A stretch of 10,558 nucleotides of DNA from Methanosarcinaceae archaeon (GTDB lineage: Archaea; Halobacteriota; Methanosarcinia; Methanosarcinales; Methanosarcinaceae). The notes under the pieces are model-generated. The model saw only the letters and a program-made list of their open reading frames with translations, was not told the DNA's origin and did no database searches. The translations under genes and the position numbers were made by a program. Each line of letters begins with the position of its first letter. Position 1 is the stretch's first letter. The stretch is from the NCBI GenBank assembly GCA_016935475.1, contig JAFGQV010000187.1:1-10558 (forward strand), given 5' to 3'. This document shows positions 1,279 to 10,558 of the stretch, piece after piece.

Positions 1279-2976
1279 TCATTCGAATTTAGTCCCGCAC
1301 ACCGAACAGAACTTCTCACCTTCACCTTTCTCTTTCCCACACTGTGGACAGGTTTTTGGTTCATCTTTTTCGACTTTTGATTTATACACAAAACTGTCTT
1401 TTACCTGTGTACCGATGCTATCACCATAATTGTAAATGTTCTGCACCATGGCAGAATCTATGAGACCTTTTACCAGTGTTCGCTTTTCGACCTCTTCAAG
1501 AATGCCGTGATAGAATCCGATCAGTGCTTCCTCGGTCTCTGCCCATGCCTTGATTATGAGTCTTGACTTATTCGTGCCGCCAACGACCTCGATCTGTGCA
1601 GCGTATTTAAGGTCCTTTACGCCAATTCCATAGAACCTTGCCACACCGTTATACATCTGGGGACTGGAAGATACCTCAGGTTCGAACATGAACATGTTCA
1701 TGTCCTCTATCACCCTTGATGCCATACCAAACAACGTTTCAGCCGGAATTGATATCTCCCGGGTTGTTTCCTCGGTCTTGACAAGATGAGTGATTATGTT
1801 TCTCCATTCGGTTATTGTGATCTCCTTGAGCTTCAGAAGCGGACAGATCACGCTGAGCGATTTTGTTTCAAGGTCGATCTCCTGGCGTTTCTTGGTGCTG
1901 TAATCATAGTAATTAACCCTGCCGGAAACATTGCAGTCTCCGCATTCGCCGGTAGGTCTGATCTCAAAGGTGACGGTTTTACTCTCACAGGGTTCGAGCA
2001 TAGAAATGGTTTTTTCGCTGTCGCTCAAAAGGAATACATCAGGAACAAAAAGGTGAACTTTGACGTCGCTGATAGGTTCAGATGTGGGATTTTCAACCTT
2101 GACCTTATAGTTGATCGTTGCACCTTTATATCCGAAAGCCGAGGAGGTTACCAATTTATCAGATGTATCGATTGCTTGCAAATCCGGTTCTGGTTCCGGA
2201 GCAAACGTTGGTTCTGGTGTTCTTGGTGGCTCTGGTGTTTTTGCGGGTTCTGGCGTTTTCGCTTGTTTTTTTCTGGCAGCATTCCTTTTTCTTGCTTTTC
2301 GAATACCTCTTATCATAAACAAAAAAAAGAACAACGATAACAACAAAAACAAAAGACCCAAAGCCTCTTCATCGGAAGAATCCTGTGCTGTGATCCCATT
2401 ATTCCAGTCTGTTTCAATAACCCTTGTATTGTCAACTGCAATTCCCTCTTTTTCGAGTGTTTGTGAAAACTCTGCTACATCATTGCTTGTAACATCAACG
2501 TACCCGAACGCATCATAATAATCCCATTTAGATAGTTCGATTTCATGCAGTCCGGTAGTTGTCTGGATCTTTATTGGGGTGGTGCCTTGATAAATACCAT
2601 CAAGATATACATCTGCACCATCAGGATAGGAAGTGACTGAAATGTACCCTGTGCTCAGTTTCTGCGCCAGGATTGCTTCAACATACGTAAATTCACCGGA
2701 TTCCACAGATATTTGCTCTAAATAATCATCGTAACCTGAACTTCTGATTTTGACCTTATGCGTTCCAACCGGAACGCCATCAAACCAGACCCAATCAGAT
2801 CCGGTCTGCCCATAGTACGTACCGTCAATATAGATATCCGAATATACCTGGTCAGACCAGACCGCAACAGAACCGGTTTGAGTTACAGTCGGAGCACATG
2901 CCACATTGGCATTCAATGCTATGACCAAAAATAAGATAATTGCTATCTTGATGGAATGTTCAATTCGTTTTGTCAT
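1279..2976 (-). CDS. Type-I membrane protein with extracellular PEGA domains, a TM helix, a KTPEP-repeat linker and a cytoplasmic ~290-aa module ending in a C-terminal zinc ribbon.
   Basis: Signal peptide MTKRIEHSIKIAIILFLVIALNANVA. Two PEGA-like repeats (VTSYPDGADVYLDGIYQGTTPIKIQTTTGLHEIELSKWDY; SDIYIDGTYYGQTGSDWVWFDGVPVGTHKVKIRSSGYDDY). Hydrophobic TM LGLLFLLLSLFFFLFMI, followed by a basic stop-transfer RKARKRNAARKKQAK. PEP-rich repeats KTPEPAKTPEPPRTPEPTFAPEPEP. The cytoplasmic domain is paralogous to the C-terminal part of the 6790..8289 protein. The terminal zinc ribbon is CPQCGKEKGEGEKFCSVCG. An AT-rich promoter-like element (aaaaatataataatattaatt, minus strand) lies in 2977..3035. Confidence 0.8.
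   Translation of the reverse strand: MTKRIEHSIKIAIILFLVIALNANVACAPTVTQTGSVAVWSDQVYSDIYIDGTYYGQTGSDWVWFDGVPVGTHKVKIRSSGYDDYLEQISVESGEFTYVEAILAQKLSTGYISVTSYPDGADVYLDGIYQGTTPIKIQTTTGLHEIELSKWDYYDAFGYVDVTSNDVAEFSQTLEKEGIAVDNTRVIETDWNNGITAQDSSDEEALGLLFLLLSLFFFLFMIRGIRKARKRNAARKKQAKTPEPAKTPEPPRTPEPTFAPEPEPDLQAIDTSDKLVTSSAFGYKGATINYKVKVENPTSEPISDVKVHLFVPDVFLLSDSEKTISMLEPCESKTVTFEIRPTGECGDCNVSGRVNYYDYSTKKRQEIDLETKSLSVICPLLKLKEITITEWRNIITHLVKTEETTREISIPAETLFGMASRVIEDMNMFMFEPEVSSSPQMYNGVARFYGIGVKDLKYAAQIEVVGGTNKSRLIIKAWAETEEALIGFYHGILEEVEKRTLVKGLIDSAMVQNIYNYGDSIGTQVKDSFVYKSKVEKDEPKTCPQCGKEKGEGEKFCSVCGTKFE
2185..2265 (-). repeat. In-frame ~15-nt tandem repeats encoding (K/R)TPEP x3 plus PEP-rich linker, immediately cytoplasmic to the TM helix.
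   Basis: On the plus strand the repeats are ggttctggtgttctt / ggtggctctggtgtt / tttgcgggttctggcgtt. The translated peptide is KTPEPAKTPEPPRTPEPTFAPEPEP. Confidence 0.7.
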
Positions 2977-3035: not shown

Positions 3036-3254
3036 TCAGGCGTAAATCAATCTGCCCTTTGGTGTTGGAATGCTCCGTCCCAGTTCCCTGGCGGTTTCGA
3101 TCCATTCCTCGATCACGATAAGGGCGTTTCGAACTGCTTCTTTGTATGTCCTGCCGTCTGCCATACAACCCGGGAGTTCCGGTACTTCCACAATATAGAC
3201 ACTATCGTCTTCACTCCAGTAAACGACCAGTTCATATTTTATATCTTCTGCCAT
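3036..3254 (-). CDS. HicB-family (UPF0150/RNase-H-like fold) antitoxin-like protein.
   Basis: The 72-aa product YELVVYWSEDDSVYIVEVPELPGCMADGRTYKEAVRNALIVIEEWIE matches the HicB N-domain signature (hhhhhxxEdGgYxaxvPdLPGCxsxGxTxEEAlxnxxEAIxl). An SD GGAGAA lies 8 nt upstream of the ATG. No HicA-like ORF is adjacent. Confidence 0.65.
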   Translation of the reverse strand: MAEDIKYELVVYWSEDDSVYIVEVPELPGCMADGRTYKEAVRNALIVIEEWIETARELGRSIPTPKGRLIYA

Positions 3255-3266
3255 GCTCAGTTCTCC

Positions 3267-3452
3267 TTAAGAGTAAAACTCCACGCCACACTTTGAGCAG
3301 AACCGCTCTCCCTCAACTCTCTCCTTCCCGCACTGCGGACAATTTTCACACCGCTTCCGACAATCGAGCACACAAACCACCACTACAACTTCGCCCCACA
3401 CTGCCCGCAGAACTTGGCATCTACTGGAATTGTTGCCCCGCACTCGGGACAT
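3267..3452 (-). CDS. Small Cys-rich double zinc-ribbon protein. 61 aa from the ATG, or ~37 aa if it starts at the GTG at 3380.
   Basis: Seven Cys are present: CVLDCRKRCENCPQCGKERVEGERFCSKCG. The C-terminal ribbon is identical at 14 of 22 residues to the ribbon at the end of the 1279..2976 protein. The ATG-initiated form overlaps the 3' end of the upstream SPFH gene by 70 nt. GTG codons lie immediately after that gene's stop. The stop at 3267 is 12 nt from the HicB start, with an SD in between. Whether it is translated as a separate protein is uncertain. Confidence 0.4.
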   Translation of the reverse strand: MSRVRGNNSSRCQVLRAVWGEVVVVVCVLDCRKRCENCPQCGKERVEGERFCSKCGVEFYS

Positions 3453-4666
3453 TTTTTCACAGCTGGACCCTTAACACCCTGCGCCGCGCCCATCATCCCG
3501 GCATCCAGTTCCTGCCGCCTGTATGAATCCGCACGCTCCCGGTCTTCAACATCCATCATGAACTGGACCTTATCTTCCTTTGCCCGGGCTTCAGCTTCCC
3601 GTATCTTTGCGAGGGCTTCGAGTTGTTCGGGTGACATACCGCCAAGTTCCCGACCCTGTACTATGGTACTGGCAACATCCGAACCACCTTTCTCGGTGAT
3701 CGTATTCAGGTACTCCATGTCACGGGAATGTTTTCGGTCGGTCATGTCTTCCTCAACTTCCAGATCAGCTCGTTTTGCCCCCGTCTTCGCTTCTTTCCAT
3801 GTTTTGAACGTCTCGATCGCCTGCCGTGCCTCCGCTGCATCCGCTTCATTTTCTATACCGGAGATATCAGCCTTAATGCGTGCCTCTTTGATCTTCTCTG
3901 CACGCTCATGCTCCCTCATAGCTGTTTCGGGTGCAAGCCTGCTCCTGACATCTGCAACACCCACGCGTCCCGTGCGTTCAAGGTCGCCTTCGGTGGTAAG
4001 AGTTTCCATATCCTTGAGCTCTTCTTCGGTCTGGAACTTGTTCGATGCCTCAAGGACCTCGCCGTAGCTTCCAAGGTCCCACTGTGCAGTGTAGCGCAGC
4101 AGCTCAAGTCCCCACATGGAAAGCGATGTCTTAAGTTGCATCTCAAGCTCGTTCTCCATCTTTAGCTGGAGATTGCGGTTGCCATAAATGTTCTCAATGT
4201 TCACCTGCTTGATCTCAGGCTCCAGTACCCGCGTGATCGTCTCGCTTTCAAGACGGCCATAGATATCCTGGATAGAAAGTGCACGCTCTCCTTTTTTATC
4301 GGGCGTCGTATATGCAAAAAGCATCTGGAAAAATTTTTTCGGGTCCTGCATCTTAAACCGCAGGATACCACTGCAACCAACCTTCTGGTTATCTGCTGTC
4401 CACATCTCAGCATGCTCCCACTCAAGGTCCTTTGGAGACGTGTCCATAAGTGCAACATCAACATCCTTCCCGATGTTGCCCGGTTTGAGTATGCCGCCCA
4501 CACGCAGTTTACCACTGTCGATTATCTCTTCGACCGTACCGTTCTTGATTATGGCAGCTTTTTCGTTAGGCGAAAGTATTATCGACTTGCTGAACAATCC
4601 ACCTACATCTTTTTTTGGGATCACCCTTGCAATATCATCTGATTGTTTTTTCCATTTGAATACCAT
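3383..4666 (-). CDS. SPFH/band-7 (flotillin-like, YdjI-type) protein with a long charged coiled-coil region and a C-terminal zinc ribbon.
   Basis: The N-terminus FKWKKQSDDIARVIPKKDVGGLFSKSIILSPNEKAAIIKNGTVEEIIDSGKLRVGG matches the N-terminal signature of the YdjI-like SPFH family (W...D.IvwkfP...i..gSqLiV.e.Q.AvF..dG...d.f.pG...L). A ~200-aa E/R/K/A-rich helical region follows. The end is KKCPECGATIPVDAKFCGQCGAKL. An SD AGGTG lies 8 nt upstream of the ATG at 4666. Confidence 0.7.
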   Translation of the reverse strand: MVFKWKKQSDDIARVIPKKDVGGLFSKSIILSPNEKAAIIKNGTVEEIIDSGKLRVGGILKPGNIGKDVDVALMDTSPKDLEWEHAEMWTADNQKVGCSGILRFKMQDPKKFFQMLFAYTTPDKKGERALSIQDIYGRLESETITRVLEPEIKQVNIENIYGNRNLQLKMENELEMQLKTSLSMWGLELLRYTAQWDLGSYGEVLEASNKFQTEEELKDMETLTTEGDLERTGRVGVADVRSRLAPETAMREHERAEKIKEARIKADISGIENEADAAEARQAIETFKTWKEAKTGAKRADLEVEEDMTDRKHSRDMEYLNTITEKGGSDVASTIVQGRELGGMSPEQLEALAKIREAEARAKEDKVQFMMDVEDRERADSYRRQELDAGMMGAAQGVKGPAVKKCPECGATIPVDAKFCGQCGAKL

Positions 4667-4723
4667 ATTTACGACACCTGTTCCTTTCGATAGCTTGTTT
4701 GCTTAGAAAGATATTGGGTAAGT

Positions 4724-4736
4724 ATTATATATAATG
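4724..4736. promoter_or_regulatory. Shared AT-rich TATA-box-like element (tattatatataat) in the divergent intergenic region between the SPFH gene and the RHH/ESCRT-III operon.
   Basis: The 127-bp intergenic region 4667..4793 is strongly AT-rich. The near-palindromic element is placed ~25-30 nt upstream of plausible TSSs on both strands. Confidence 0.35.
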
Positions 4737-4738
4737 TT

Positions 4739-4758
4739 TTCTATTGTATACAATAGAA
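4739..4758. promoter_or_regulatory. Perfect 20-bp palindrome TTCTATTGTATACAATAGAA, a candidate operator (likely for the adjacent RHH protein), between the TATA element and the RHH start.
   Basis: The sequence equals its own reverse complement (10+10, no spacer). It lies 36 nt upstream of the RHH ATG at 4794. Confidence 0.5.
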
Positions 4759-4793
4759 GCCAGTTTGACTATAATTATAACGGTGGAGACCAA

Positions 4794-4949
4794 ATGGGAA
4801 TATCATATCCGGTAAGTGCAAGAGTATCAGAGAACATAAAACAATACCTAGATGAATTGGTTGAGAGGGGGATCGCAATTAATACTTCTGAAGCATTAAA
4901 AATATGTATAAGGTATGCTAAACAAAAGAAAATGGAGGATGAAATATAA
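4794..4949 (+). CDS. Ribbon-helix-helix (CopG/Arc-like) DNA-binding protein, 51 aa, likely autoregulator of the downstream operon.
   Basis: MGISYPVSARVSENIKQYLDELVERGIAINTSEALKICIRYAKQKK shows a beta-strand with alternating hydrophobics followed by two helices. An SD GGTGGAG (4783..4789) lies 5 nt before the ATG at 4794. The track's upstream ATG at 4734 lacks an RBS and would start inside the promoter. The stop overlaps the next start (TAATG). Confidence 0.6.
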   Translation: MGISYPVSARVSENIKQYLDELVERGIAINTSEALKICIRYAKQKKMEDEI

Positions 4950-5512
4950 TGGGACTTGGAAATCCATTCAAAAAAGTATCACCTGAAGAACTGAAAACAA
5001 AACTCGCGATATCCGAACAGAGATTATCTGCACGGGAATCTGAACTCTCCAAAAAACGCCAGAAATCACGTGAACAAGCAAAGGAAGCACTGGCAAACGG
5101 TAACGACCGTGAGTTTAGGGTTGCATCCCGCAGGTATTCCATGGTTGAGGGACAGGTCAATACCATCAGCAGCATGGTGGAGATGGCACAATCCATGACA
5201 GATGTGATTGAGATGCAGACAGGGCTTAAGGAAGTTGTTGATATCGGGAACGATCTTGGCAAATGGCAAAAACAGCTTGGATTTGACACGAGTAAACTGG
5301 AGAGTGCAGTTACCAACATCCGCACCTCCATGGAGAAAGTGAACACTGCAACCAATATGATGACATCTTCAATGGATGCAGCCATGGCTGGCGGAACTGA
5401 ACTTAGCGATATGCAGGATTCACTCAGGGGCGAGTTGCTGGCAGAACTTAGCGGTGAGACGGCATCCAAGGATAAGCTATCCAAGAAGATCGAAGAAGAG
5501 ATGGAAGAGTGA
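4949..5512 (+). CDS. ESCRT-III/Snf7/PspA-superfamily protein (CdvB/CHMP-like), 187 aa.
   Basis: MGLGNPFKKVSPEEL... parallels the CHMP/Snf7 N-terminus (MGLFGK..PKE). The basic helical N-half (KKRQKSREQAKEALANGNDREFRVASRRYSMVEGQ) and the acidic, Met-rich helical C-half follow the charge asymmetry of the Snf7 domain. The protein ends in an acidic amphipathic helix DKLSKKIEEEMEE, which is MIM-like. A strong SD GGAGGA lies 9 nt upstream. The gene is followed by a MIT-AAA ATPase gene. Confidence 0.55.
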   Translation: MGLGNPFKKVSPEELKTKLAISEQRLSARESELSKKRQKSREQAKEALANGNDREFRVASRRYSMVEGQVNTISSMVEMAQSMTDVIEMQTGLKEVVDIGNDLGKWQKQLGFDTSKLESAVTNIRTSMEKVNTATNMMTSSMDAAMAGGTELSDMQDSLRGELLAELSGETASKDKLSKKIEEEMEE

Positions 5513-5600: not shown

Positions 5601-6767
5601 GTGCCCCATTTGACATCTACAAGTTCACTCGCGGCCCAGGCCCGCGGATATGCAAAAGCTGCCAGGACCTTAGAGGATGAGAACAAATACGAGCGAGCGA
5701 GAGAACTCTACCTCAAGGCAGCTAAATTATACAACGAAGCATCAAAGATCGCAACCGACAAGACCGATAAGAACACCCAGCGCGACCTTGCAGAGCATCT
5801 TCTTGCAAAAGCGCAGTCCCTCAAAAGCTCAGGTGCCCACGATTCAGTTTCCGGGATTAGCAGTGGAAGCGGTGGTAGCGATTCTGACGAGTCTTCGTTA
5901 TCAAAGGATGACCTTATCCTGAAACAGATCCCTAACATCGGATTTGATGACATCGGCGGTCTTGAATCCGTAAAAGAGGACATCAGGAAGGCGATCATAT
6001 ACCCCTTCACCCACAAGGACCTGTACAAGATGTACGGACAGAAAGCAGGCGAAGGCATTCTCCTCTACGGACCTCCAGGCTGCGGTAAGACCATGATGGC
6101 AAAGGCTGCTGCTAAGGAATGCGGCGCGGACTTTATCAGTGTCAAGACGAGTAGTATTGTGAGCAAATGGGTGGGAGCGTCCGAGAAGAATGTCAAACAG
6201 GTTTTTGAGACTGCGCGCCAGTGTGAGAAATCCATCATCTTTTTTGATGAGATCGATTCAATAGCCGGAAGGCGCAGCGAGAGCGAGGATTACGCCAAGC
6301 GCGTGGTTAACGAACTCCTCGCCCAGATGGACGGGGTCGATACGGCTGATGACAATCTCCTTATCCTTGCAGCCACCAACGAGCCGTGGGCGATCGACCC
6401 GGCTCTGCGGCGCCCGGGGCGTTTCAGTAAACTGGTGTTCATACCTGAACCGGACCTCGATGCCCGTGCAGCAATATTCAAGCTCAACCTGAAAGGGCGA
6501 CCGATTTCGGATGATGTTGATGTCAACCGGCTTGCCGGGATCACAGAATCGTATTCAGGTGCGGACATTTCTGCTATCTGTAAAGAAGCAGCGGATATTC
6601 CGCTGGGCGAGGCGCTTCGTGGCGGTGAGGCACGGAAGATCGCAATGAAGGATTTCGTAACAGTACTGCAAGGTCGGAAGCCTTCTATCTTAAGCTGGTA
6701 TGTGGAAGCCCGGGCGGAAGTTAGGAAGAGCGGGGAAGAAGCAGTGTTTGAGGGGATAATGGGATGA
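5601..6767 (+). CDS. Vps4/CdvC-like AAA+ ATPase (meiotic clade) with N-terminal MIT-like three-helix domain.
   Basis: The start is a GTG at 5601, the only in-frame start before the domain. The N-terminus AAQARGYAKAARTLEDENKYERARELYLKAAKLYNEASKIA...LAEHLLAKAQSLK resembles the Vps4 MIT domain (A..LA..A...D..G.YeeAl.lY..a...f.......  ....eYl.RAE.LK). An S/G/D-rich linker follows. The AAA core has Walker A GPPGCGKT, Walker B IIFFDEID, an SRH LAATNEPWAIDPALRRPGRF and a sensor-2 region. The protein ends shortly after the AAA lid, so no Vps4 beta-domain or C-terminal helix is evident. Confidence 0.8.
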   Translation: MPHLTSTSSLAAQARGYAKAARTLEDENKYERARELYLKAAKLYNEASKIATDKTDKNTQRDLAEHLLAKAQSLKSSGAHDSVSGISSGSGGSDSDESSLSKDDLILKQIPNIGFDDIGGLESVKEDIRKAIIYPFTHKDLYKMYGQKAGEGILLYGPPGCGKTMMAKAAAKECGADFISVKTSSIVSKWVGASEKNVKQVFETARQCEKSIIFFDEIDSIAGRRSESEDYAKRVVNELLAQMDGVDTADDNLLILAATNEPWAIDPALRRPGRFSKLVFIPEPDLDARAAIFKLNLKGRPISDDVDVNRLAGITESYSGADISAICKEAADIPLGEALRGGEARKIAMKDFVTVLQGRKPSILSWYVEARAEVRKSGEEAVFEGIMG

Positions 6768-6789: not shown

Positions 6790-8289
6790 ATGAATGTTAT
6801 ACTTACAAATCAAATGAAAAAGATACTGCATGGTGAAAAAGCAGTAGCTATTGCATCAGCATCTATGAACAAATCAGTATTTGATACTGATGTAGGTGTC
6901 AGTGATTCAGAACTCTTAAATAACGTGGTTTCAACAGTCAACGAAGTATTTGAGAATGATAAAAAAATTAGTGGTTCAGTGCTTTTAACAGATAGTCGTA
7001 TCATACTATATTCAAAACGGACTTTAGGTGGTTACTATTTCAAAGATTTTCGAATAAATTCGATTAACGGTGTCACATTCAAAAATGGATTTTTAAAATC
7101 TAGCATGATATTTCATACAAATAACGGTGATACTAAAATAAATATGCCAGATAAAAACGCCGCAAAAAAATTAAATATCGCTCTGGAAACACGCATATCT
7201 AAATGGAAAAAAGAAGCAATTGCCATTGAATCTTATGACGCCGTAGAAATAACATCACATAAACCCACAAAACATTCAGACAACATTAATTCAGACCTTT
7301 TAATATCCCGCGAAACCGAATTTTACCAGGGTTTTATTCGATTAAAGATGTCTGTCACCAACACTTCATCCTTTGTAGTTAACGATGTCACTCTCGATTT
7401 TGATTATGATAACAACTTATTAAGAATAGACAGACACGAACCTGATTATCAAATTGAAAATGGAAAAGTCATATTTGGAAATATATCTGTCGATTCTTCA
7501 AAAACCGTTGCAATTTACTTTGATCCAATGATGTGCTCAAAAGGTACAGACATCAACTGCCAGATAAATTACAAAGATGCAAAAGGGCAGCTCCAAACTA
7601 CTCAGATGGAATCAAAGAAAATTAGTGTGGTTTGCCCGATAATGGAAACAGAATCTGATATAAACATCGGCAGACTTAAAGAGTTCATCAAAAAACTGCC
7701 GTATAGTGACAGCAAGGTGTATCAATTACAGAACAATTATGATATCGATATTCTAAAAAATATCTCACGGGAAGTTGTACAAAAACACAATGTTAAGCAC
7801 ATAAGGACTCTTATTACGAAAGATGAAAAAATGTGTGAGGTATGGTACTATGGCAAGACCAAAGTGCACAGCCATGATATTGTCATTAAAATTACAATTT
7901 TAAGCGAAACACAGAACATTGAATTGTTTGCTGCAACTCAAACTGTAGAATCTCTTGCCGGACTGCTGGCAGAAGTAGGACGTGAGTTGAAGAGTGCTAT
8001 TGAAAGTAAGATCACCGGCAATGTTCAGCAAGTCATCAATGTGTCTATCAAGGATTCTATTGTCCAGCGAAGCAACCTTTTGAGTTATTGTGATATTGAC
8101 GGTAATTGCAGTGGGGATGTTGTTATTGAAGACAGTCTTGTGATGCGTTCGAATATTAGTTCGGATGCTGAAGTTAAGGACAGTGTAGTGCAAAAAACTA
8201 ATGTCGGTAATATCTTTTGTACGGCTTGTGGAGAGGCTGTGCCGGCTGGTGCAAAGTTCTGCATGGAATGTGGGGAGAGGTTAAAGTGA
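6790..8289 (+). CDS. Multidomain protein with four parts: a PH/GRAM-like N-domain, a two-Cys beta-sandwich-like domain, KDSxVxxSN repeats and a C-terminal zinc ribbon. Paralog of the cytoplasmic part of the 1279..2976 protein.
   Basis: Residues ~60-125 (SGSVLLTDSRIILYSKRTLGGYYFKDFRINSINGVTFKNGFLKSSMIFHTNNGDTKINMP) fit a bacterial-PH/GRAM-like strand pattern. Residues ~178-283 align to residues ~283-380 of the PEGA protein (SKTV..F...P..C..G.D.N....INY.D.......+.....K.+SV+CP). The repeats are IKDSIVQRSNL / IEDSLVMRSNI / VKDSVVQKTNV. The end is CTACGEAVPAGAKFCMECGERLK. The first ~1.1 kb is markedly AT-rich relative to its neighbours. Confidence 0.55.
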   Translation: MNVILTNQMKKILHGEKAVAIASASMNKSVFDTDVGVSDSELLNNVVSTVNEVFENDKKISGSVLLTDSRIILYSKRTLGGYYFKDFRINSINGVTFKNGFLKSSMIFHTNNGDTKINMPDKNAAKKLNIALETRISKWKKEAIAIESYDAVEITSHKPTKHSDNINSDLLISRETEFYQGFIRLKMSVTNTSSFVVNDVTLDFDYDNNLLRIDRHEPDYQIENGKVIFGNISVDSSKTVAIYFDPMMCSKGTDINCQINYKDAKGQLQTTQMESKKISVVCPIMETESDINIGRLKEFIKKLPYSDSKVYQLQNNYDIDILKNISREVVQKHNVKHIRTLITKDEKMCEVWYYGKTKVHSHDIVIKITILSETQNIELFAATQTVESLAGLLAEVGRELKSAIESKITGNVQQVINVSIKDSIVQRSNLLSYCDIDGNCSGDVVIEDSLVMRSNISSDAEVKDSVVQKTNVGNIFCTACGEAVPAGAKFCMECGERLK

Positions 8290-8320: not shown

Positions 8321-8722
8321 ATGAGCAACCTAGAAGAAGGCATGCGGTGGTTCAAACAAAGTGAACGCGACCTCGGCGCAGCTGCGAGTCTGCGGGATAG
8401 TGAATACTACGAATCTGCATGTTTCCATGCGCAGCAGGCGTCGGAAAAAGCACTCAAAGGACTGCTCTATGCGAAAGGGTACAGGTCTGTAATAACCCAC
8501 TCCACGCGAGAATTATACAAACATGTAAAAAAACTGATCCCGGACTTTAAGGATTATGACCATGCATCGATGAATCTTGACAAACACTACATTCCACCGC
8601 GCTACCCGGATGCATTCCCCTCCGGCTCACCCTATGAATATTACACAAAAGAGGATGCAGACAAATGCATAAACTATGCAGGATTGATATTAGCCGAAGT
8701 GAGAAACTTCATGAGCGAATAA
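8321..8722 (+). CDS. HEPN-domain protein (toxin partner of the HEPN/MNT module).
   Basis: FHAQQASEKALKGLLYAKG is a typical HEPN helix. An R-x4-H motif (RELYKH) is present. An SD GGGAGG (8311..8316) lies 5 nt upstream of the ATG. The 3' end overlaps the downstream MNT gene by 58 nt. Confidence 0.75.
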   Translation: MSNLEEGMRWFKQSERDLGAAASLRDSEYYESACFHAQQASEKALKGLLYAKGYRSVITHSTRELYKHVKKLIPDFKDYDHASMNLDKHYIPPRYPDAFPSGSPYEYYTKEDADKCINYAGLILAEVRNFMSE

Positions 8723-9024
8723 AACAGTTCGTGTCAAGACTCGCATCCCGTCCGGGCATCAAGCAGGTCTACCTGTTCGGCTCGGTCGCGCGGGACGATT
8801 TCAATGAAGGCAGCGACATAGACATTGCTATCATAGGGGATTTCAAAGAGCGATTTTTAGATAGGGGTGACGCGTTTTTTGAAATGACCGATCTTCCGAT
8901 AGAACCGCTCTGCTACACCGAATCTGAATTTGAAACAATGAAGAAGAGCAATAATCCCTTTGTAAAAGAGATATTGAAAGGGAAGATACTGTTCGATCAT
9001 CAGAAAAGGCGAGGTTTCACATGA
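8665..9024 (+). CDS. Minimal nucleotidyltransferase (MNT, Pol-beta superfamily), antitoxin-type partner of HEPN.
   Basis: LFGSVARDDFNEGSDIDIAII matches the G[SG]x9-13Dh[DE]h NTase signature. The true start may be a non-ATG codon downstream of 8665. The stop overlaps the next gene's start (ATGA at 9021..9024). Confidence 0.8.
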   Translation: MHKLCRIDISRSEKLHERIKQFVSRLASRPGIKQVYLFGSVARDDFNEGSDIDIAIIGDFKERFLDRGDAFFEMTDLPIEPLCYTESEFETMKKSNNPFVKEILKGKILFDHQKRRGFT

Positions 9025-10199
9025 CCGACCACGAAACAGACCCAAAAACCCTCCAGCAAAATAACCGCAAAAAGGCGATCAACAACCTGCGCGATGTGCA
9101 TGCGGCAATCGAAAGACTGATGAACAAAACCTACCGCCAGCAGGATGTGACCGCAAGTTCCGCACTCAGGCAGATGAGGACAAGGGTAACTGCGCTGCTC
9201 TCGGAGATGGAGAACACAGGTCTTGACACATTCAGCGGACGCGAGGGTACACTGGATGAGTTCTACAACGCTGAGGAGCATTTCACCAAAAGCTCGACCA
9301 GACTGATAAAAGCAGTCGAAGATGCTGAGGTCACCGATGAAAAGGTCGATGTGTTTTCACTGGAAGATCTTGTCGATGCACTGGAGAGGGGTTTCAACAA
9401 CAGGATCATTCTCACACAGGAACACCTGAAAGAATACGAAAAACTACGAACGGAGTCCCGGAAAGAAGAAATTACCGAGGAGCCCTTCAAGGCTGTGCAG
9501 GATACTGTATCTGAAACCGTGGCGGATGCAGAAGTTGAAGAGATATCCGAAGATATTGATTCATCAATGCCACCGGAACTCTATAATTACATCAACATCC
9601 TTGAGCAGAAATACTCGACCTACAGACCCGAGATATCAAACAGCGGCGATTATATTGCAAACAAATCATGGAAAGTGGATACAGCAGAGGACGGTATTCG
9701 AGCTGTTGTCAAGGACGGGATGTTCAAAACACTACTTGTTTTTGAGACATACTGGATGCCACTGGATAATGTGCAGGATACTGTAAAGTTCGTGCAGTCG
9801 CAGGCGAATGCGGTTGGCAAGAACCAGTACAAAAGCCTGTGTCTCATTAACAGTGTATGGAACAATGAGGTCCAAAACTGGGCAGGAAGTTTCGTTCATC
9901 AGCGTATGGTTCTATTCCTGTATGAACTTGAAAGCGGGACACTCATTTTTAATGGAACATCAAAGACTGCAGACAACTTTAAGTTCTGGCACTCTACTGA
10001 CAATCAGAAAATGACACTTGCCGATGAAATGGCTGGTTTTATTGAGGATACGGAATACTTCACGGTCACTGACGTTATGTCACGTTTTGGCTTGAACTCC
10101 CGCGGGGCAGAGATGTACCTGGATGAACTGGTAAAGAAAGGAAAACTTGTTGATGTGGGACTCGAAAAACCGAAATACACAAAATCAAAACTCAGCTGA
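9021..10199 (+). CDS. Hypothetical 392-aa protein translationally coupled to HEPN-MNT. It has three parts: a helical N-region, an acidic linker and a C-terminal winged-helix-like domain.
   Basis: An SD GGCGAGG precedes the ATG. The acidic stretch is EEITEEPFKAVQDTVSETVADAEVEEISEDID. The C-terminus YFTVTDVMSRFGLNSRGAEMYLDELVKKGKLV resembles a wHTH. No catalytic motif was recognised with confidence. Confidence 0.6.
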   Translation: MTDHETDPKTLQQNNRKKAINNLRDVHAAIERLMNKTYRQQDVTASSALRQMRTRVTALLSEMENTGLDTFSGREGTLDEFYNAEEHFTKSSTRLIKAVEDAEVTDEKVDVFSLEDLVDALERGFNNRIILTQEHLKEYEKLRTESRKEEITEEPFKAVQDTVSETVADAEVEEISEDIDSSMPPELYNYINILEQKYSTYRPEISNSGDYIANKSWKVDTAEDGIRAVVKDGMFKTLLVFETYWMPLDNVQDTVKFVQSQANAVGKNQYKSLCLINSVWNNEVQNWAGSFVHQRMVLFLYELESGTLIFNGTSKTADNFKFWHSTDNQKMTLADEMAGFIEDTEYFTVTDVMSRFGLNSRGAEMYLDELVKKGKLVDVGLEKPKYTKSKLS

Positions 10200-10207
10200 G
10201 GATTCCA

Positions 10208-10558
10208 CTATTTACCAAGGAACTCACTGACCTTTTGCTTCAGCGTCTCGCTCAATATTTTACCATCAACCTTGCCCCTGAATTCTGCCATAACAACTCC
10301 CATCAATGGACCAACCGCAGCCATACCTTTTTCCCTTACGAAGTCCTGACGGCTCGCCACCACACTTTCAATGAACTTCTCGATCTGTGCAGTATCGATA
10401 CCTGTTAATCCGAGGTTGGCTACTGCTTCCTTTGCGCTCAATGACGGCTCCTTTGCAAGCAAGCGCAGGATCTTCTCAATTCCCTCCTTTGCAACCTCGC
10501 CACCTGCAAGGATGTCGAATAACTGGATGAAATGCTCATCCTTGAGGTTATCAACCTC
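10208..10558 (-). CDS. C-terminal part of a GatB/YqeY-domain protein (aspartyl/glutamyl-tRNA amidotransferase subunit B or E). Partial; continues beyond the window end.
   Basis: The minus-strand frame is open from 10558 to the stop at 10208. The product ...LAKEPSLSAKEAVANLGLTGIDTAQIEKFIESVVASRQ...GPLMGVVMAEFRGKVDGKILSETLKQKVSEFLGK resembles the helical GatB/YqeY tail domain. It is convergent with the 392-aa gene, with only an 8-bp gap. Confidence 0.5.
   Translation of the reverse strand, partial: EVDNLKDEHFIQLFDILAGGEVAKEGIEKILRLLAKEPSLSAKEAVANLGLTGIDTAQIEKFIESVVASRQDFVREKGMAAVGPLMGVVMAEFRGKVDGKILSETLKQKVSEFLGK

Follow-up and report, generated by a model that had tools for sequence, protein, structure and literature searches.

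The window analyzed here, a stretch of 10,558 nucleotides from a Methanosarcinaceae archaeon, carries an SPFH gene on the minus strand and, divergent from it, an operon in the order predicted ribbon-helix-helix (RHH), Snf7-type ESCRT-III, Vps4-like ATPase, appendage/zinc ribbon, (HEPN/MNT insertion) and coiled-coil/winged-helix. An earlier note on this DNA had paired the SPFH gene with the ESCRT-III gene, and both open reading frames were found exactly where it had placed them, at 3383-4666 (minus strand, 427 aa) and 4949-5512 (plus strand, 187 aa).

The 427-aa protein, of arCOG15283 type, is composed of an SPFH domain, a coiled coil of about 200 aa and a C-terminal zinc ribbon. In the Pfam search, residues 30-191 matched Band_7 (E = 7.4e-8; 33.1 bits versus a gathering score of 23.6) and residues 405-427 matched Zn_Ribbon_1 (E = 3.8e-8), confirming both the SPFH domain and the terminal zinc ribbon that had been proposed. 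The generic Band_7 was the only SPFH-domain profile matched, and the best HHpred match of the Methanosalsum zhilinae ortholog is a CDD entry, 'cd3405', labelled just SPFH (Makarova et al. 2024). The AF2 model (mean pLDDT 76) showed the SPFH domain followed by long helices at residues 201-298, 303-342 and 346-395 and then the zinc ribbon. When this model was searched with Foldseek, the top PDB folds were flotillin (E = 3e-10), HflK/C, stomatin, prohibitin and erlin, with a probability of 1.00 for the first four, and the best alignment, with flotillin, spanned 411 columns. As no hydrophobic or transmembrane segment was detected (the maximum of the 19-residue Kyte-Doolittle hydropathy was 0.65), the protein is predicted to be soluble and to lack a membrane anchor. 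Over its whole length it shares 50% identity with Mzhil_1285 of M. zhilinae (WP_013898576, arCOG15283). Neither a partner protease (FtsH) nor NfeD was present in the neighborhood of the SPFH gene.

The SPFH and ESCRT-III genes had been described as lying head-to-head across one AT-rich region at 4667-4948. The divergent layout and the AT-richness were borne out, but the immediate head-to-head neighbor of the SPFH gene encodes a predicted 51-aa RHH protein (4794-4949, plus strand) and opens the ESCRT operon, with ESCRT-III in second place. Because the RHH gene precedes ESCRT-III, the actual spacer is limited to 4667-4793 (127 bp). This putative control region, common to the SPFH gene and the RHH-ESCRT-III operon, has a GC content of 31.5%, compared to 44.8% for the whole window. 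The RHH product is deposited in GenBank as a 51-aa hypothetical protein (MBN2489176.1). RHH_1 was matched by 8 of 12 orthologs (best E = 4.4e-5) and RelB by two, while the window protein itself reached 18.1 bits against the RHH_1 gathering score of 20.5; the C-terminal region of AbmR also matched it, with E = 1.8e-5. The RHH stop codon overlaps the ESCRT-III start codon (TAATG) and a Shine-Dalgarno sequence, GGAGGAGG, lies within the final RHH codons ahead of ESCRT-III, so the two genes are predicted to be translationally coupled. The RHH gene was found in all 40 of the related loci described below, with a median dN/dS of 0.066, and is under strong purifying selection.

Within the spacer, the flanks could not be aligned between loci, and the central block was almost invariant. 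This 25-nt block, TTATATATA-NN-GTTTTCYATTGTAT (4725-4749), consists of a TATA-box-like element surrounded by purine-rich, BRE-like flanks on either strand. Of 43 fetched loci, 37 had a single exact match to its degenerate pattern, in every case within the SPFH-RHH spacer, and the block is likely to be a core promoter or operator. The TATA-like element is followed directly by a perfect 20-bp palindrome, TTCTATTGTA/TACAATAGAA (4739-4758), which is an operator candidate; its left arm was almost invariant across loci, and the whole palindrome was only partly conserved, 16 of 40 loci having 8 or more of the 10 positions complementary. A 71-aa open reading frame starting at 4734 was rejected as an artefact, as its 'MFSIVY' codons correspond to the conserved DNA block and in other loci are broken up by stop codons.

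The ESCRT-III protein (4949-5512, plus strand; 187 aa, arCOG00454 type) had been described as a member of the ESCRT-III/PspA superfamily. In the window it matched Snf7 weakly (Pfam, E = 0.0027); among the 20 family members, comprising the window protein and 19 relatives, 17 matched Snf7 over almost the whole profile, the best with E = 3.1e-5. PspA_IM30 (PF04012) gave zero matches among the window protein, the 19 relatives and 10 distant representatives. The structural model was all-helical, made up of four long helices, and in Foldseek the PDB structures closest to it were Asgard ESCRT-IIIB, Sulfolobus islandicus CdvB (probability 0.99) and the Snf7 core, with Vipp1 and PspA ranking below these. 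The protein is 76% identical to WP_013898574 of M. zhilinae, an ortholog which was placed in arCOG00454 by Makarova et al. 2024. These results indicate that it belongs on the Snf7/CdvB side and not on the PspA side. An invariant C-terminal helix (L159-E162-L163-A165-E166) is a possible MIM.

The existence of a Vps4-like ATPase in the locus, as claimed before, was confirmed at 5601-6767 (plus strand; 388 aa, arCOG01307 type), 88 bp after ESCRT-III and in the same order as in M. zhilinae, where WP_013898573 is 66% identical. The AAA domain was matched in Pfam (E = 3.5e-45), and an N-terminal helical, MIT-like domain gave a weak match which covered the full MIT profile (E = 0.0068; 16.9 bits versus a gathering score of 30). 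Against the PDB, residues 1-105 returned calpain-7 alone (E = 0.67). With the CdvC model the alignment covered residues 7-369 and scored 245 bits; on the AAA part the CDC48 model reached 269 bits, and the score of the AAA module against Cdc48 D2 was no lower than that against CdvC. Neither a protease domain (Pfam) nor a transmembrane segment (hydropathy) was found in the ATPase.

Three further proteins complete the set. The gene at 6790-8289 (plus strand) encodes a 499-aa protein of arCOG15284 type with a bacterial-PH domain (bPH_3, E = 1.8e-9), an adaptin-appendage-like region (Alpha_adaptinC2, just E = 0.09) and a C-terminal zinc ribbon (Zn_Ribbon_1, E = 1.1e-6), which is 48% identical to WP_013898571 of M. 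zhilinae. At 9021-10199 (plus strand) lies the gene for a 392-aa coiled-coil protein with a C-terminal, ESCRT-II-like winged helix (wH), which matched EAP30/Vps36 weakly at residues 298-377 (Pfam, E = 0.0045) and is 31-39% identical to its M. zhilinae and Methanococcoides methylutens counterparts, described as 'coiled-coil fused to wHTH' (Makarova et al. 2024). Downstream of the SPFH gene, the 565-aa protein encoded at 1279-2976 (minus strand) has a signal or transmembrane segment, two PEGA domains outside the membrane (E = 2.3e-25), a second transmembrane segment, a Pro-rich linker, an appendage-like region and a C-terminal zinc ribbon (Zn_Ribbon_1, E = 1.9e-4), with hydrophobic windows near the N-terminus and around residues 204-228. 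It is the sole membrane-spanning component of the locus, a candidate membrane anchor, and 40% identical (E = 2e-118) to WP_048205009 of M. methylutens (arCOG15284). For both the 499-aa and the 565-aa protein, the appendage-like identity comes from orthology alone. A HEPN/MNT pair is inserted within the ESCRT operon, and a HicB-like gene and a 61-aa zinc-ribbon ORF lie downstream of the SPFH gene. In the Pfam scan, CdvA and PRC domains were absent from the ten window ORFs scanned, as was ProX/OpuAC from the ORFs scanned.

The pairing was then followed in those related loci for which 900 bp or more of upstream sequence was available (n = 40). In 40 of 40, ESCRT-III was divergent from the SPFH gene and within 1.5 kb of it, upholding the adjacency proposed in the earlier note, and in every one of them it was the RHH and ESCRT-III genes together that diverged from the SPFH gene. 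All 37 of the genome loci came from Methanosarcinales-related genomes or MAGs. The SPFH proteins of genera keeping this arrangement were just 50-79% identical, with synonymous sites saturated. In Methanoperedens-type loci the ATPase gene was 1.4-9 kb from ESCRT-III or absent from the fetched stretch, and the SPFH/ESCRT-III junction was intact despite this displacement. The SPFH/RHH+ESCRT-III junction is thus invariant across the lineage. Near the genes of a sister ESCRT-III clade (51-60% identity) SPFH genes were not observed, indicating that not every member of this ESCRT-III subfamily has SPFH as a partner.

Taken as a whole, the locus is best explained as a complete copy of the euryarchaeal 'Meth_adaptin' ESCRT system, together with the SPFH-platform mechanism suggested below, and we put the probability of this reading at about 0.85. 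The Meth_adaptin system was described with the M. zhilinae locus WP_013898571-WP_013898578 as its model (Makarova et al. 2024, mBio 15:e00335-24), so the SPFH/ESCRT-III pairing was already known; that study (PMC10936438) assigned the SPFH-CC-ZnR component to arCOG15283 and drew the YdjI/PspA analogy. Every window protein had a same-order counterpart in M. zhilinae and M. methylutens (tblastn), and the counterpart coordinates mapped one-to-one onto proteins in the supplementary tables (arCOG15283, arCOG00454, arCOG01307, arCOG15284 and CC+wHTH); this gene-by-gene orthology identifies the window as a Meth_adaptin copy. Shared with it are the SPFH-CC-ZnR protein, Snf7-type ESCRT-III, Vps4, two arCOG15284 appendage-like proteins, the coiled-coil and wH component and an identical divergent arrangement, with protein identities to M. 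zhilinae of 31-76%. The differences are that the membrane-spanning appendage protein has extracellular PEGA domains and a C-terminal zinc ribbon here but a GOLD domain in M. zhilinae, that the wH and appendage genes are in swapped order, that the window has the HEPN/MNT pair, the HicB-like gene and the 61-aa ORF noted above, and that the ProX gene of M. zhilinae is missing; as it is also absent in M. methylutens, ProX is an accessory and not a defining gene. The RHH gene and the conserved block also occur in M. zhilinae. They were not found in the text, neighborhood tables or searched supplements of Makarova et al. 2024, and are the only, modest additions to that account.

Considering the domain architecture, a homologous archaeal counterpart of the Bacillus subtilis PspA-YdjGHI (PspA-SamGHI) envelope-stress module, hybridized with a Cdv-type Vps4 and serving membrane stress or repair, had to be weighed against the Meth_adaptin reading. 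B. subtilis YdjI is an SPFH protein that has no membrane anchor, ends in a zinc finger and recruits an ESCRT-III-superfamily protein (PMC8581546; bioRxiv 10.64898/2026.02.06.704340). The window protein shares this YdjI/SamI architecture and the strict linkage to an ESCRT-III-superfamily gene, a separate membrane protein of the same cluster could tether it in the role of YdjG/H, and an ancient SPFH-ESCRT-III connection was raised by Makarova et al. 2024 (PMC10936438). By the same token, the 'fusion' of SPFH and zinc ribbon, once singled out as special, does not set the protein apart, because YdjI has such an end as well. However, the partner here is Snf7-type, with PspA_IM30 in 0 of 20 family members and 0 of 10 distant relatives and with Asgard ESCRT-IIIB, CdvB and Snf7 outranking Vipp1/PspA by fold; the SPFH domain matched nothing more specific than Band_7, or 'cd3405' for the ortholog, which leaves the 'YdjI-type' label of the earlier note unsupported; the coiled coil of about 200 aa replaces the low-complexity linker of YdjI; and the Vps4, appendage-like and wH proteins are missing from the Psp system. 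The genes are divergent here and form a single sigma-W operon in B. subtilis, and the domains of the only transmembrane protein, PEGA-appendage-ZnR, appear unrelated to YdjG/YdjH. Homology of the two modules is unlikely. A functional analogy, as distinct from it, is possible, and the parallel with YdjI-PspA is reasonable. The 'PspA-type and Cdv-type hybrid' of the earlier note was accordingly rejected, because ESCRT-III is Snf7/CdvB-type without PspA_IM30 signal, the scan of ten window ORFs detected no CdvA domain, and the adaptin-appendage-like and winged-helix proteins are those of the published euryarchaeal ESCRT class. As in the Cdv system of TACK archaea (CdvA-CdvB-CdvC), an arCOG00454 ESCRT-III is followed by a Vps4/CdvC-type ATPase, but CdvA is lacking and ESCRT-III is without the C-terminal winged helix of CdvB. 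A role in cell division is unlikely, since organisms with complex euryarchaeal ESCRT systems retain FtsZ-based machinery for division (Makarova et al. 2024, PMC10936438).

Alternatively, the SPFH protein might act as a cage around the AAA ATPase, confining or regulating it as HflK/C does with FtsH, leaving ESCRT-III as a substrate or bystander. HflK/C-FtsH cages were among the best structural matches, the AAA module falls in the classic clade near Cdc48, FtsH and PAN, and both genes belong to one conserved cluster. An SPFH fold followed by long coiled-coil helices is indeed common to flotillin, HflK/HflC, stomatin and prohibitin cages, but here there is no transmembrane helix or hairpin, a terminal zinc ribbon is present and no FtsH/NfeD partner was found. 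The ATPase has no protease domain or transmembrane segment, and the invariant neighbor of SPFH is RHH+ESCRT-III, a junction kept intact in Methanoperedens-type loci with the ATPase displaced by 1.4-9 kb or not found, making this a very improbable explanation. That an unrelated SPFH gene came to lie beside the ESCRT operon by chance has nothing in its favor beyond the abundance of SPFH genes in archaea. The divergent layout in 40 of 40 loci, at 50-79% SPFH identity and saturated synonymous sites, and the nearly invariant 25-nt block led us to reject it as having practically no likelihood.

For the Meth_adaptin system in the window, we suggest a mechanism in which every step is drawn from domain content and gene order. 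Both arms would be co-regulated from the common spacer, with RHH probably serving as their dedicated (auto)regulator. The SPFH protein would oligomerize via its long coiled coil into a flotillin- or HflK/C-like assembly at the cytoplasmic membrane face; as it lacks an anchor, the membrane-spanning appendage protein would take it there, in a role like that of YdjG/H towards YdjI. The resulting platform may recruit or nucleate the Snf7-type ESCRT-III polymer, which the Vps4-like ATPase would remodel or recycle, using its N-terminal MIT-like domain and the conserved helix at the C-terminus of ESCRT-III. As cargo or bridging adaptors, the appendage-like and winged-helix proteins may take part, and the candidate outputs are vesicle or cargo sorting versus membrane repair.

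For RHH, we tentatively propose, at somewhat less than even odds, that it is a dedicated, integral part of the ESCRT system which binds the TATA-adjacent block and thereby co-controls SPFH and ESCRT-III/Vps4 through one bidirectional promoter. In other archaeal systems, wH/CdvA proteins are encoded upstream of ESCRT-III, and in a less likely variant RHH would fill their slot as a structural nucleator of ESCRT-III. If true, RHH control would be the first proposed regulatory handle for any euryarchaeal ESCRT system.

What makes the system interesting is that methanogens with FtsZ also possess an ESCRT-III/Vps4 machine whose partners are adaptin-appendage-like, ESCRT-II-like and SPFH proteins, which has implications for the age of the SPFH-ESCRT-III partnership and of cargo-sorting modules. 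This case, including the YdjI analogy, was already made in the 2024 publication, and the window is a further instance and not a new idea. Contributed here are the quantitative statement of the SPFH/ESCRT-III junction's invariance (40 of 40 loci) and the clear assignment of ESCRT-III to the Snf7 rather than the PspA side, and the overlooked RHH gene with its conserved, putative promoter/operator block offers an easy experimental entry into the regulation of the system.

In the window, a 10,558-bp contig from a Methanosarcinaceae MAG, the minus-strand gene at 3383-4666 encodes a 427-aa protein in which Pfam places a Band_7 domain over residues 30-191 (E=7.4e-8; 33.1 bits against a cut-off of 23.6) and a zinc ribbon at residues 405-427 (E=3.8e-8), so that the SPFH identity proposed for its N-terminal domain in the earlier note was borne out by profile search. 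Within Pfam, the domain matched generic Band_7 only; no NCBIfam model matched the SPFH, ESCRT-III or ribbon-helix-helix (RHH) proteins discussed here, and the SPFH alignment profile returned only noise when compared with PDB sequences. For an ortholog, the best HHpred match was the CDD entry 'cd3405', labelled SPFH (Makarova et al. 2024, PMC10936438). In an AF2 model built from 18 homologs (mean pLDDT 76), the SPFH domain was followed by helices at residues 201-298, 303-342 and 346-395 and then by the ribbon, and the closest PDB folds were flotillin (E=3e-10, 411 aligned columns), HflK/C, stomatin, prohibitin, erlin and QmcA. The protein contains no hydrophobic segment, the maximum 19-residue hydropathy being 0.65.

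A ribbon of the form CPxCG-x7-9-FCxxCG ends three proteins of the window, namely the SPFH protein (3386-3454) and both appendage-like proteins (1282-1350, and within 6793-8286), and one might speculate from this shared motif that it acts as a docking tag within the system. Zn_Ribbon_1 was also matched (E=9.2e-7) by a 61-aa ORF at 3267-3452 (minus strand), which is read in a different frame from SPFH and overlaps the final 70 nt of that gene. The ribbon of this ORF (CPQCGKERVEGERFCSKCG) is similar to the one at the C-terminus of the PEGA-appendage protein, and the ORF could be a small zinc-ribbon gene or a remnant of a rearranged appendage gene.

The plus-strand gene at 4949-5512 encodes a 187-aa protein for which the choice lay between the Snf7 and PspA branches of the ESCRT-III superfamily. 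The window protein alone matched Snf7 with E=0.0027 in Pfam, while 17 of 20 family members matched this profile over nearly its whole length (best E=3.1e-5) and none of the 20 matched PspA_IM30; a single distant representative, P0201, scored above the Pfam cut-off (29.1 bits). The structural model consists of four long helices (residues 12-49, 53-110, 115-146 and 152-186). In a Foldseek search, the upper ranks were taken by Asgard ESCRT-IIIB, S. islandicus CdvB, Loki CHMP4-7 and the Snf7 core, with probabilities of 0.97-1.00 and E-values that were weak throughout (≥0.05), and Vipp1/PspA ranked lower (probability 0.6-0.92). The ESCRT-III profile found nothing significant among PDB sequences (IST1, E~1; MakA, E~0.03). 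The 187-aa protein is an ESCRT-III protein of the Snf7 kind, and its C-terminal helix carries the invariant residues L159, E162, L163, A165 and E166. The subfamily is small, with 82 representatives at E≤0.001 among 1.84 billion. A sister clade with 51-60% identity had no SPFH or RHH neighbour in the two contexts inspected (8550-9110 of locus L043, and P0153); an AAA ATPase comes after the sister gene in one of them, and the gene stands alone in the other.

Between the SPFH and ESCRT-III genes, the ORF list contained a 71-aa ORF at 4734-4949, of which comparison across loci limited the coding part to the last 51 codons. The longer reading was rejected, as the 20 codons at its start, 'MFSIVY' among them, correspond to a conserved DNA block in which many other loci have stop codons. 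The gene thus starts with the ATG at 4794, preceded by GGTGGAG, and runs on the plus strand to 4949; its 51-aa product, a hypothetical protein in GenBank, was present in all 40 loci. The median dN/dS was 0.066 for the 114 unsaturated pairs (dS was saturated in most pairs), indicating strong purifying selection. Eight of 12 orthologs matched RHH_1 (best E=4.4e-5), two matched RelB, and the 51-aa protein matched the C-terminal region of the transcription factor AbmR (E=1.8e-5); by sequence, it looks like a ribbon-helix-helix protein. A 410-aa protein in the same 90%-identity cluster, P0256, proved to be an unrelated membrane protein and was discarded as a clustering artefact. The RHH stop codon overlaps the ESCRT-III start (TAATG), depicting translational coupling, and the final RHH codons (ATGGAGGAGGAA) form the Shine-Dalgarno sequence for ESCRT-III.

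Since the true RHH start lies at 4794, it is the RHH gene that faces the SPFH gene head-to-head, across a shared spacer at 4667-4793. The earlier note had placed SPFH head-to-head with ESCRT-III across a common AT-rich region; the divergent orientation and the AT-rich spacer (31.5% GC versus 44.8% for the window) stand, but the immediate neighbour had to be replaced. The spacer contains a 25-nt block, TTATATATA-NN-GTTTTCYATTGTAT, at 4725-4749; 37 of 43 loci have it exactly once and in this position, and its flanks did not align. The block is a TATA-box-like element flanked on either side by a purine-rich, BRE-like sequence (plus strand, GGGTAAG; minus strand, AGAAAAC), and we infer from this arrangement that one symmetric TATA could serve both directions. 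In the window, the block continues into a perfect 20-bp palindrome at 4739-4758. Across loci, conservation covered the left arm and the TGTATACA core and nothing further, and 16 of 40 loci had complementary bases at 8 or more of 10 positions. The idea of an operator whose palindrome is strictly conserved was accordingly downgraded.

To assess the conservation of the junction, one genome per species was scanned, giving 37 loci, all from Methanosarcinales-related genomes or MAGs (Methanolobus, Methanococcoides, Methanomethylovorans, Methanoperedens and other MAGs); members of arCOG15283, the published SPFH-coiled-coil-zinc-ribbon family, have also been tabulated outside Methanosarcinales, in Methanocorpusculum, Natronolimnobius and marine group II (Makarova et al. 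2024, PMC10936438). Forty loci, two pairs of them duplicates, offered 900 bp or more of sequence upstream of SPFH; in tblastn searches with all window proteins, every one of these (40 of 40) had ESCRT-III on the opposite strand, no more than 1.5 kb away. The adjacency reported in the earlier note is thus conserved in related genomes, with no exception in the data gathered. The divergent arrangement was the same in M. zhilinae, Methanococcoides methylutens and a JGI metagenome contig resembling Methanoperedens MAG loci, and identities across loci were 50-79% for SPFH and 68-90% for ESCRT-III. The ATPase directly follows ESCRT-III in Methanosarcinaceae-type loci, and is displaced or not seen within the fetched stretch in Methanoperedens-type loci.

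Six Methanoperedens-type loci (L004, L030, L032, L034, L035 and L040) are rearranged and retain the SPFH/RHH/ESCRT-III junction; in loci of this type, the ATPase and winged-helix protein are on the other side or several kb away, and the SPFH proteins have an N-terminal extension of about 45 aa. A second, partial copy of SPFH is present in locus L032 (19629-20225). The RHH and SPFH genes are 46-250 bp apart except in one MAG (L037, 8925-10000), where roughly 1 kb more DNA lies between them, perhaps inserted into the shared spacer.

The ESCRT operon continues on the plus strand with the ATPase gene (5601-6767). The NCBIfam CdvC model covered residues 7-369 of its product with 245 bits, slightly below the 269 bits of the CDC48 model against the AAA module; the closest PDB sequences were p97/Cdc48 D2, and MIT was matched with E=0.0068, under the Pfam cut-off. 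The 'Vps4-like' label rests on gene context and the weak MIT signal. An ortholog has been assigned to a deep-branching Vps4 clade (Makarova et al. 2024, PMC10936438), with which these scores agree. Downstream are genes for a protein with bPH, an appendage-like region and a zinc ribbon (6790-8289) and for a coiled-coil and winged-helix protein (9021-10199), followed by a GatB/YqeY fragment on the minus strand (10208-10462). Beyond the SPFH gene, the minus strand encodes a protein with two PEGA domains, a transmembrane segment, an appendage-like region and a zinc ribbon (1279-2976) and a PD40 propeller (187-1236). Two further elements interrupt this order: a HEPN (8321-8722; E=7.9e-31) and nucleotidyltransferase (8665-9024; E=2.4e-14) pair, overlapping by 58 nt on the plus strand between the appendage and winged-helix genes of the operon, and a HicB-like antitoxin gene (3036-3254, minus strand) between the SPFH and PEGA genes. 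As tblastn found no counterparts of either in the related loci, they look like genome-specific insertions of toxin-antitoxin type.

The system of the window corresponds to the published 'Meth_adaptin' clade, whose model locus is M. zhilinae WP_013898571-578 (Makarova et al. 2024, PMC10936438); the coordinates of this locus coincide with our L001, and those of M. methylutens MM1, tabulated in the same study, with L003. At 9700-11586 of L001, the gene caller gave a 628-aa OpuAC protein where RefSeq has only a 275-aa ProX; towards its N-terminus it is similar (25% identity) to the appendage region in the 499-aa window protein (6790-8289), and it may be a fusion or a pseudogene. The same study noted that some PspA loci of bacteria encode YdjI, which localises PspA (Makarova et al. 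2024, PMC10936438), and the central idea of the earlier note was therefore already in print. The SPFH-zinc-ribbon fusion, which that note pointed out, does not separate the window protein from YdjI (Scholz et al.); what does set it apart is its coiled coil of about 200 aa. Nor was a hybrid of PspA-type and Cdv-type systems supported, as the ESCRT-III is of Snf7 type and PspA and CdvA are absent.

Alongside the observed identities, orthology, gene order, translational coupling and conserved spacer, a mechanism can be proposed. As other SPFH proteins do, the anchor-less SPFH protein would oligomerise by means of its coiled coil, and it would be recruited to the membrane by the PEGA-TM-appendage-zinc-ribbon protein, the sole membrane-spanning component. 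It could then provide a membrane platform on which Snf7-type ESCRT-III polymerises, with the ATPase recycling the polymer via the invariant C-terminal helix, and the RHH protein may regulate both arms, SPFH and the ESCRT operon. In the tables of Makarova et al. 2024, neither M. zhilinae nor M. methylutens has a gene entered between ESCRT-III and SPFH, and terms for RHH/CopG or a small protein are absent from the text of that paper; neither the RHH gene (4794-4949) nor the TATA-like block and palindrome (4725-4758) is in the published description. As the system and the YdjI/PspA analogy have been published, the finding itself is already known, and the present analysis adds modestly to it the assignment of ESCRT-III to Snf7 rather than PspA, the 40/40 count and an RHH gene with a conserved putative promoter/operator block.
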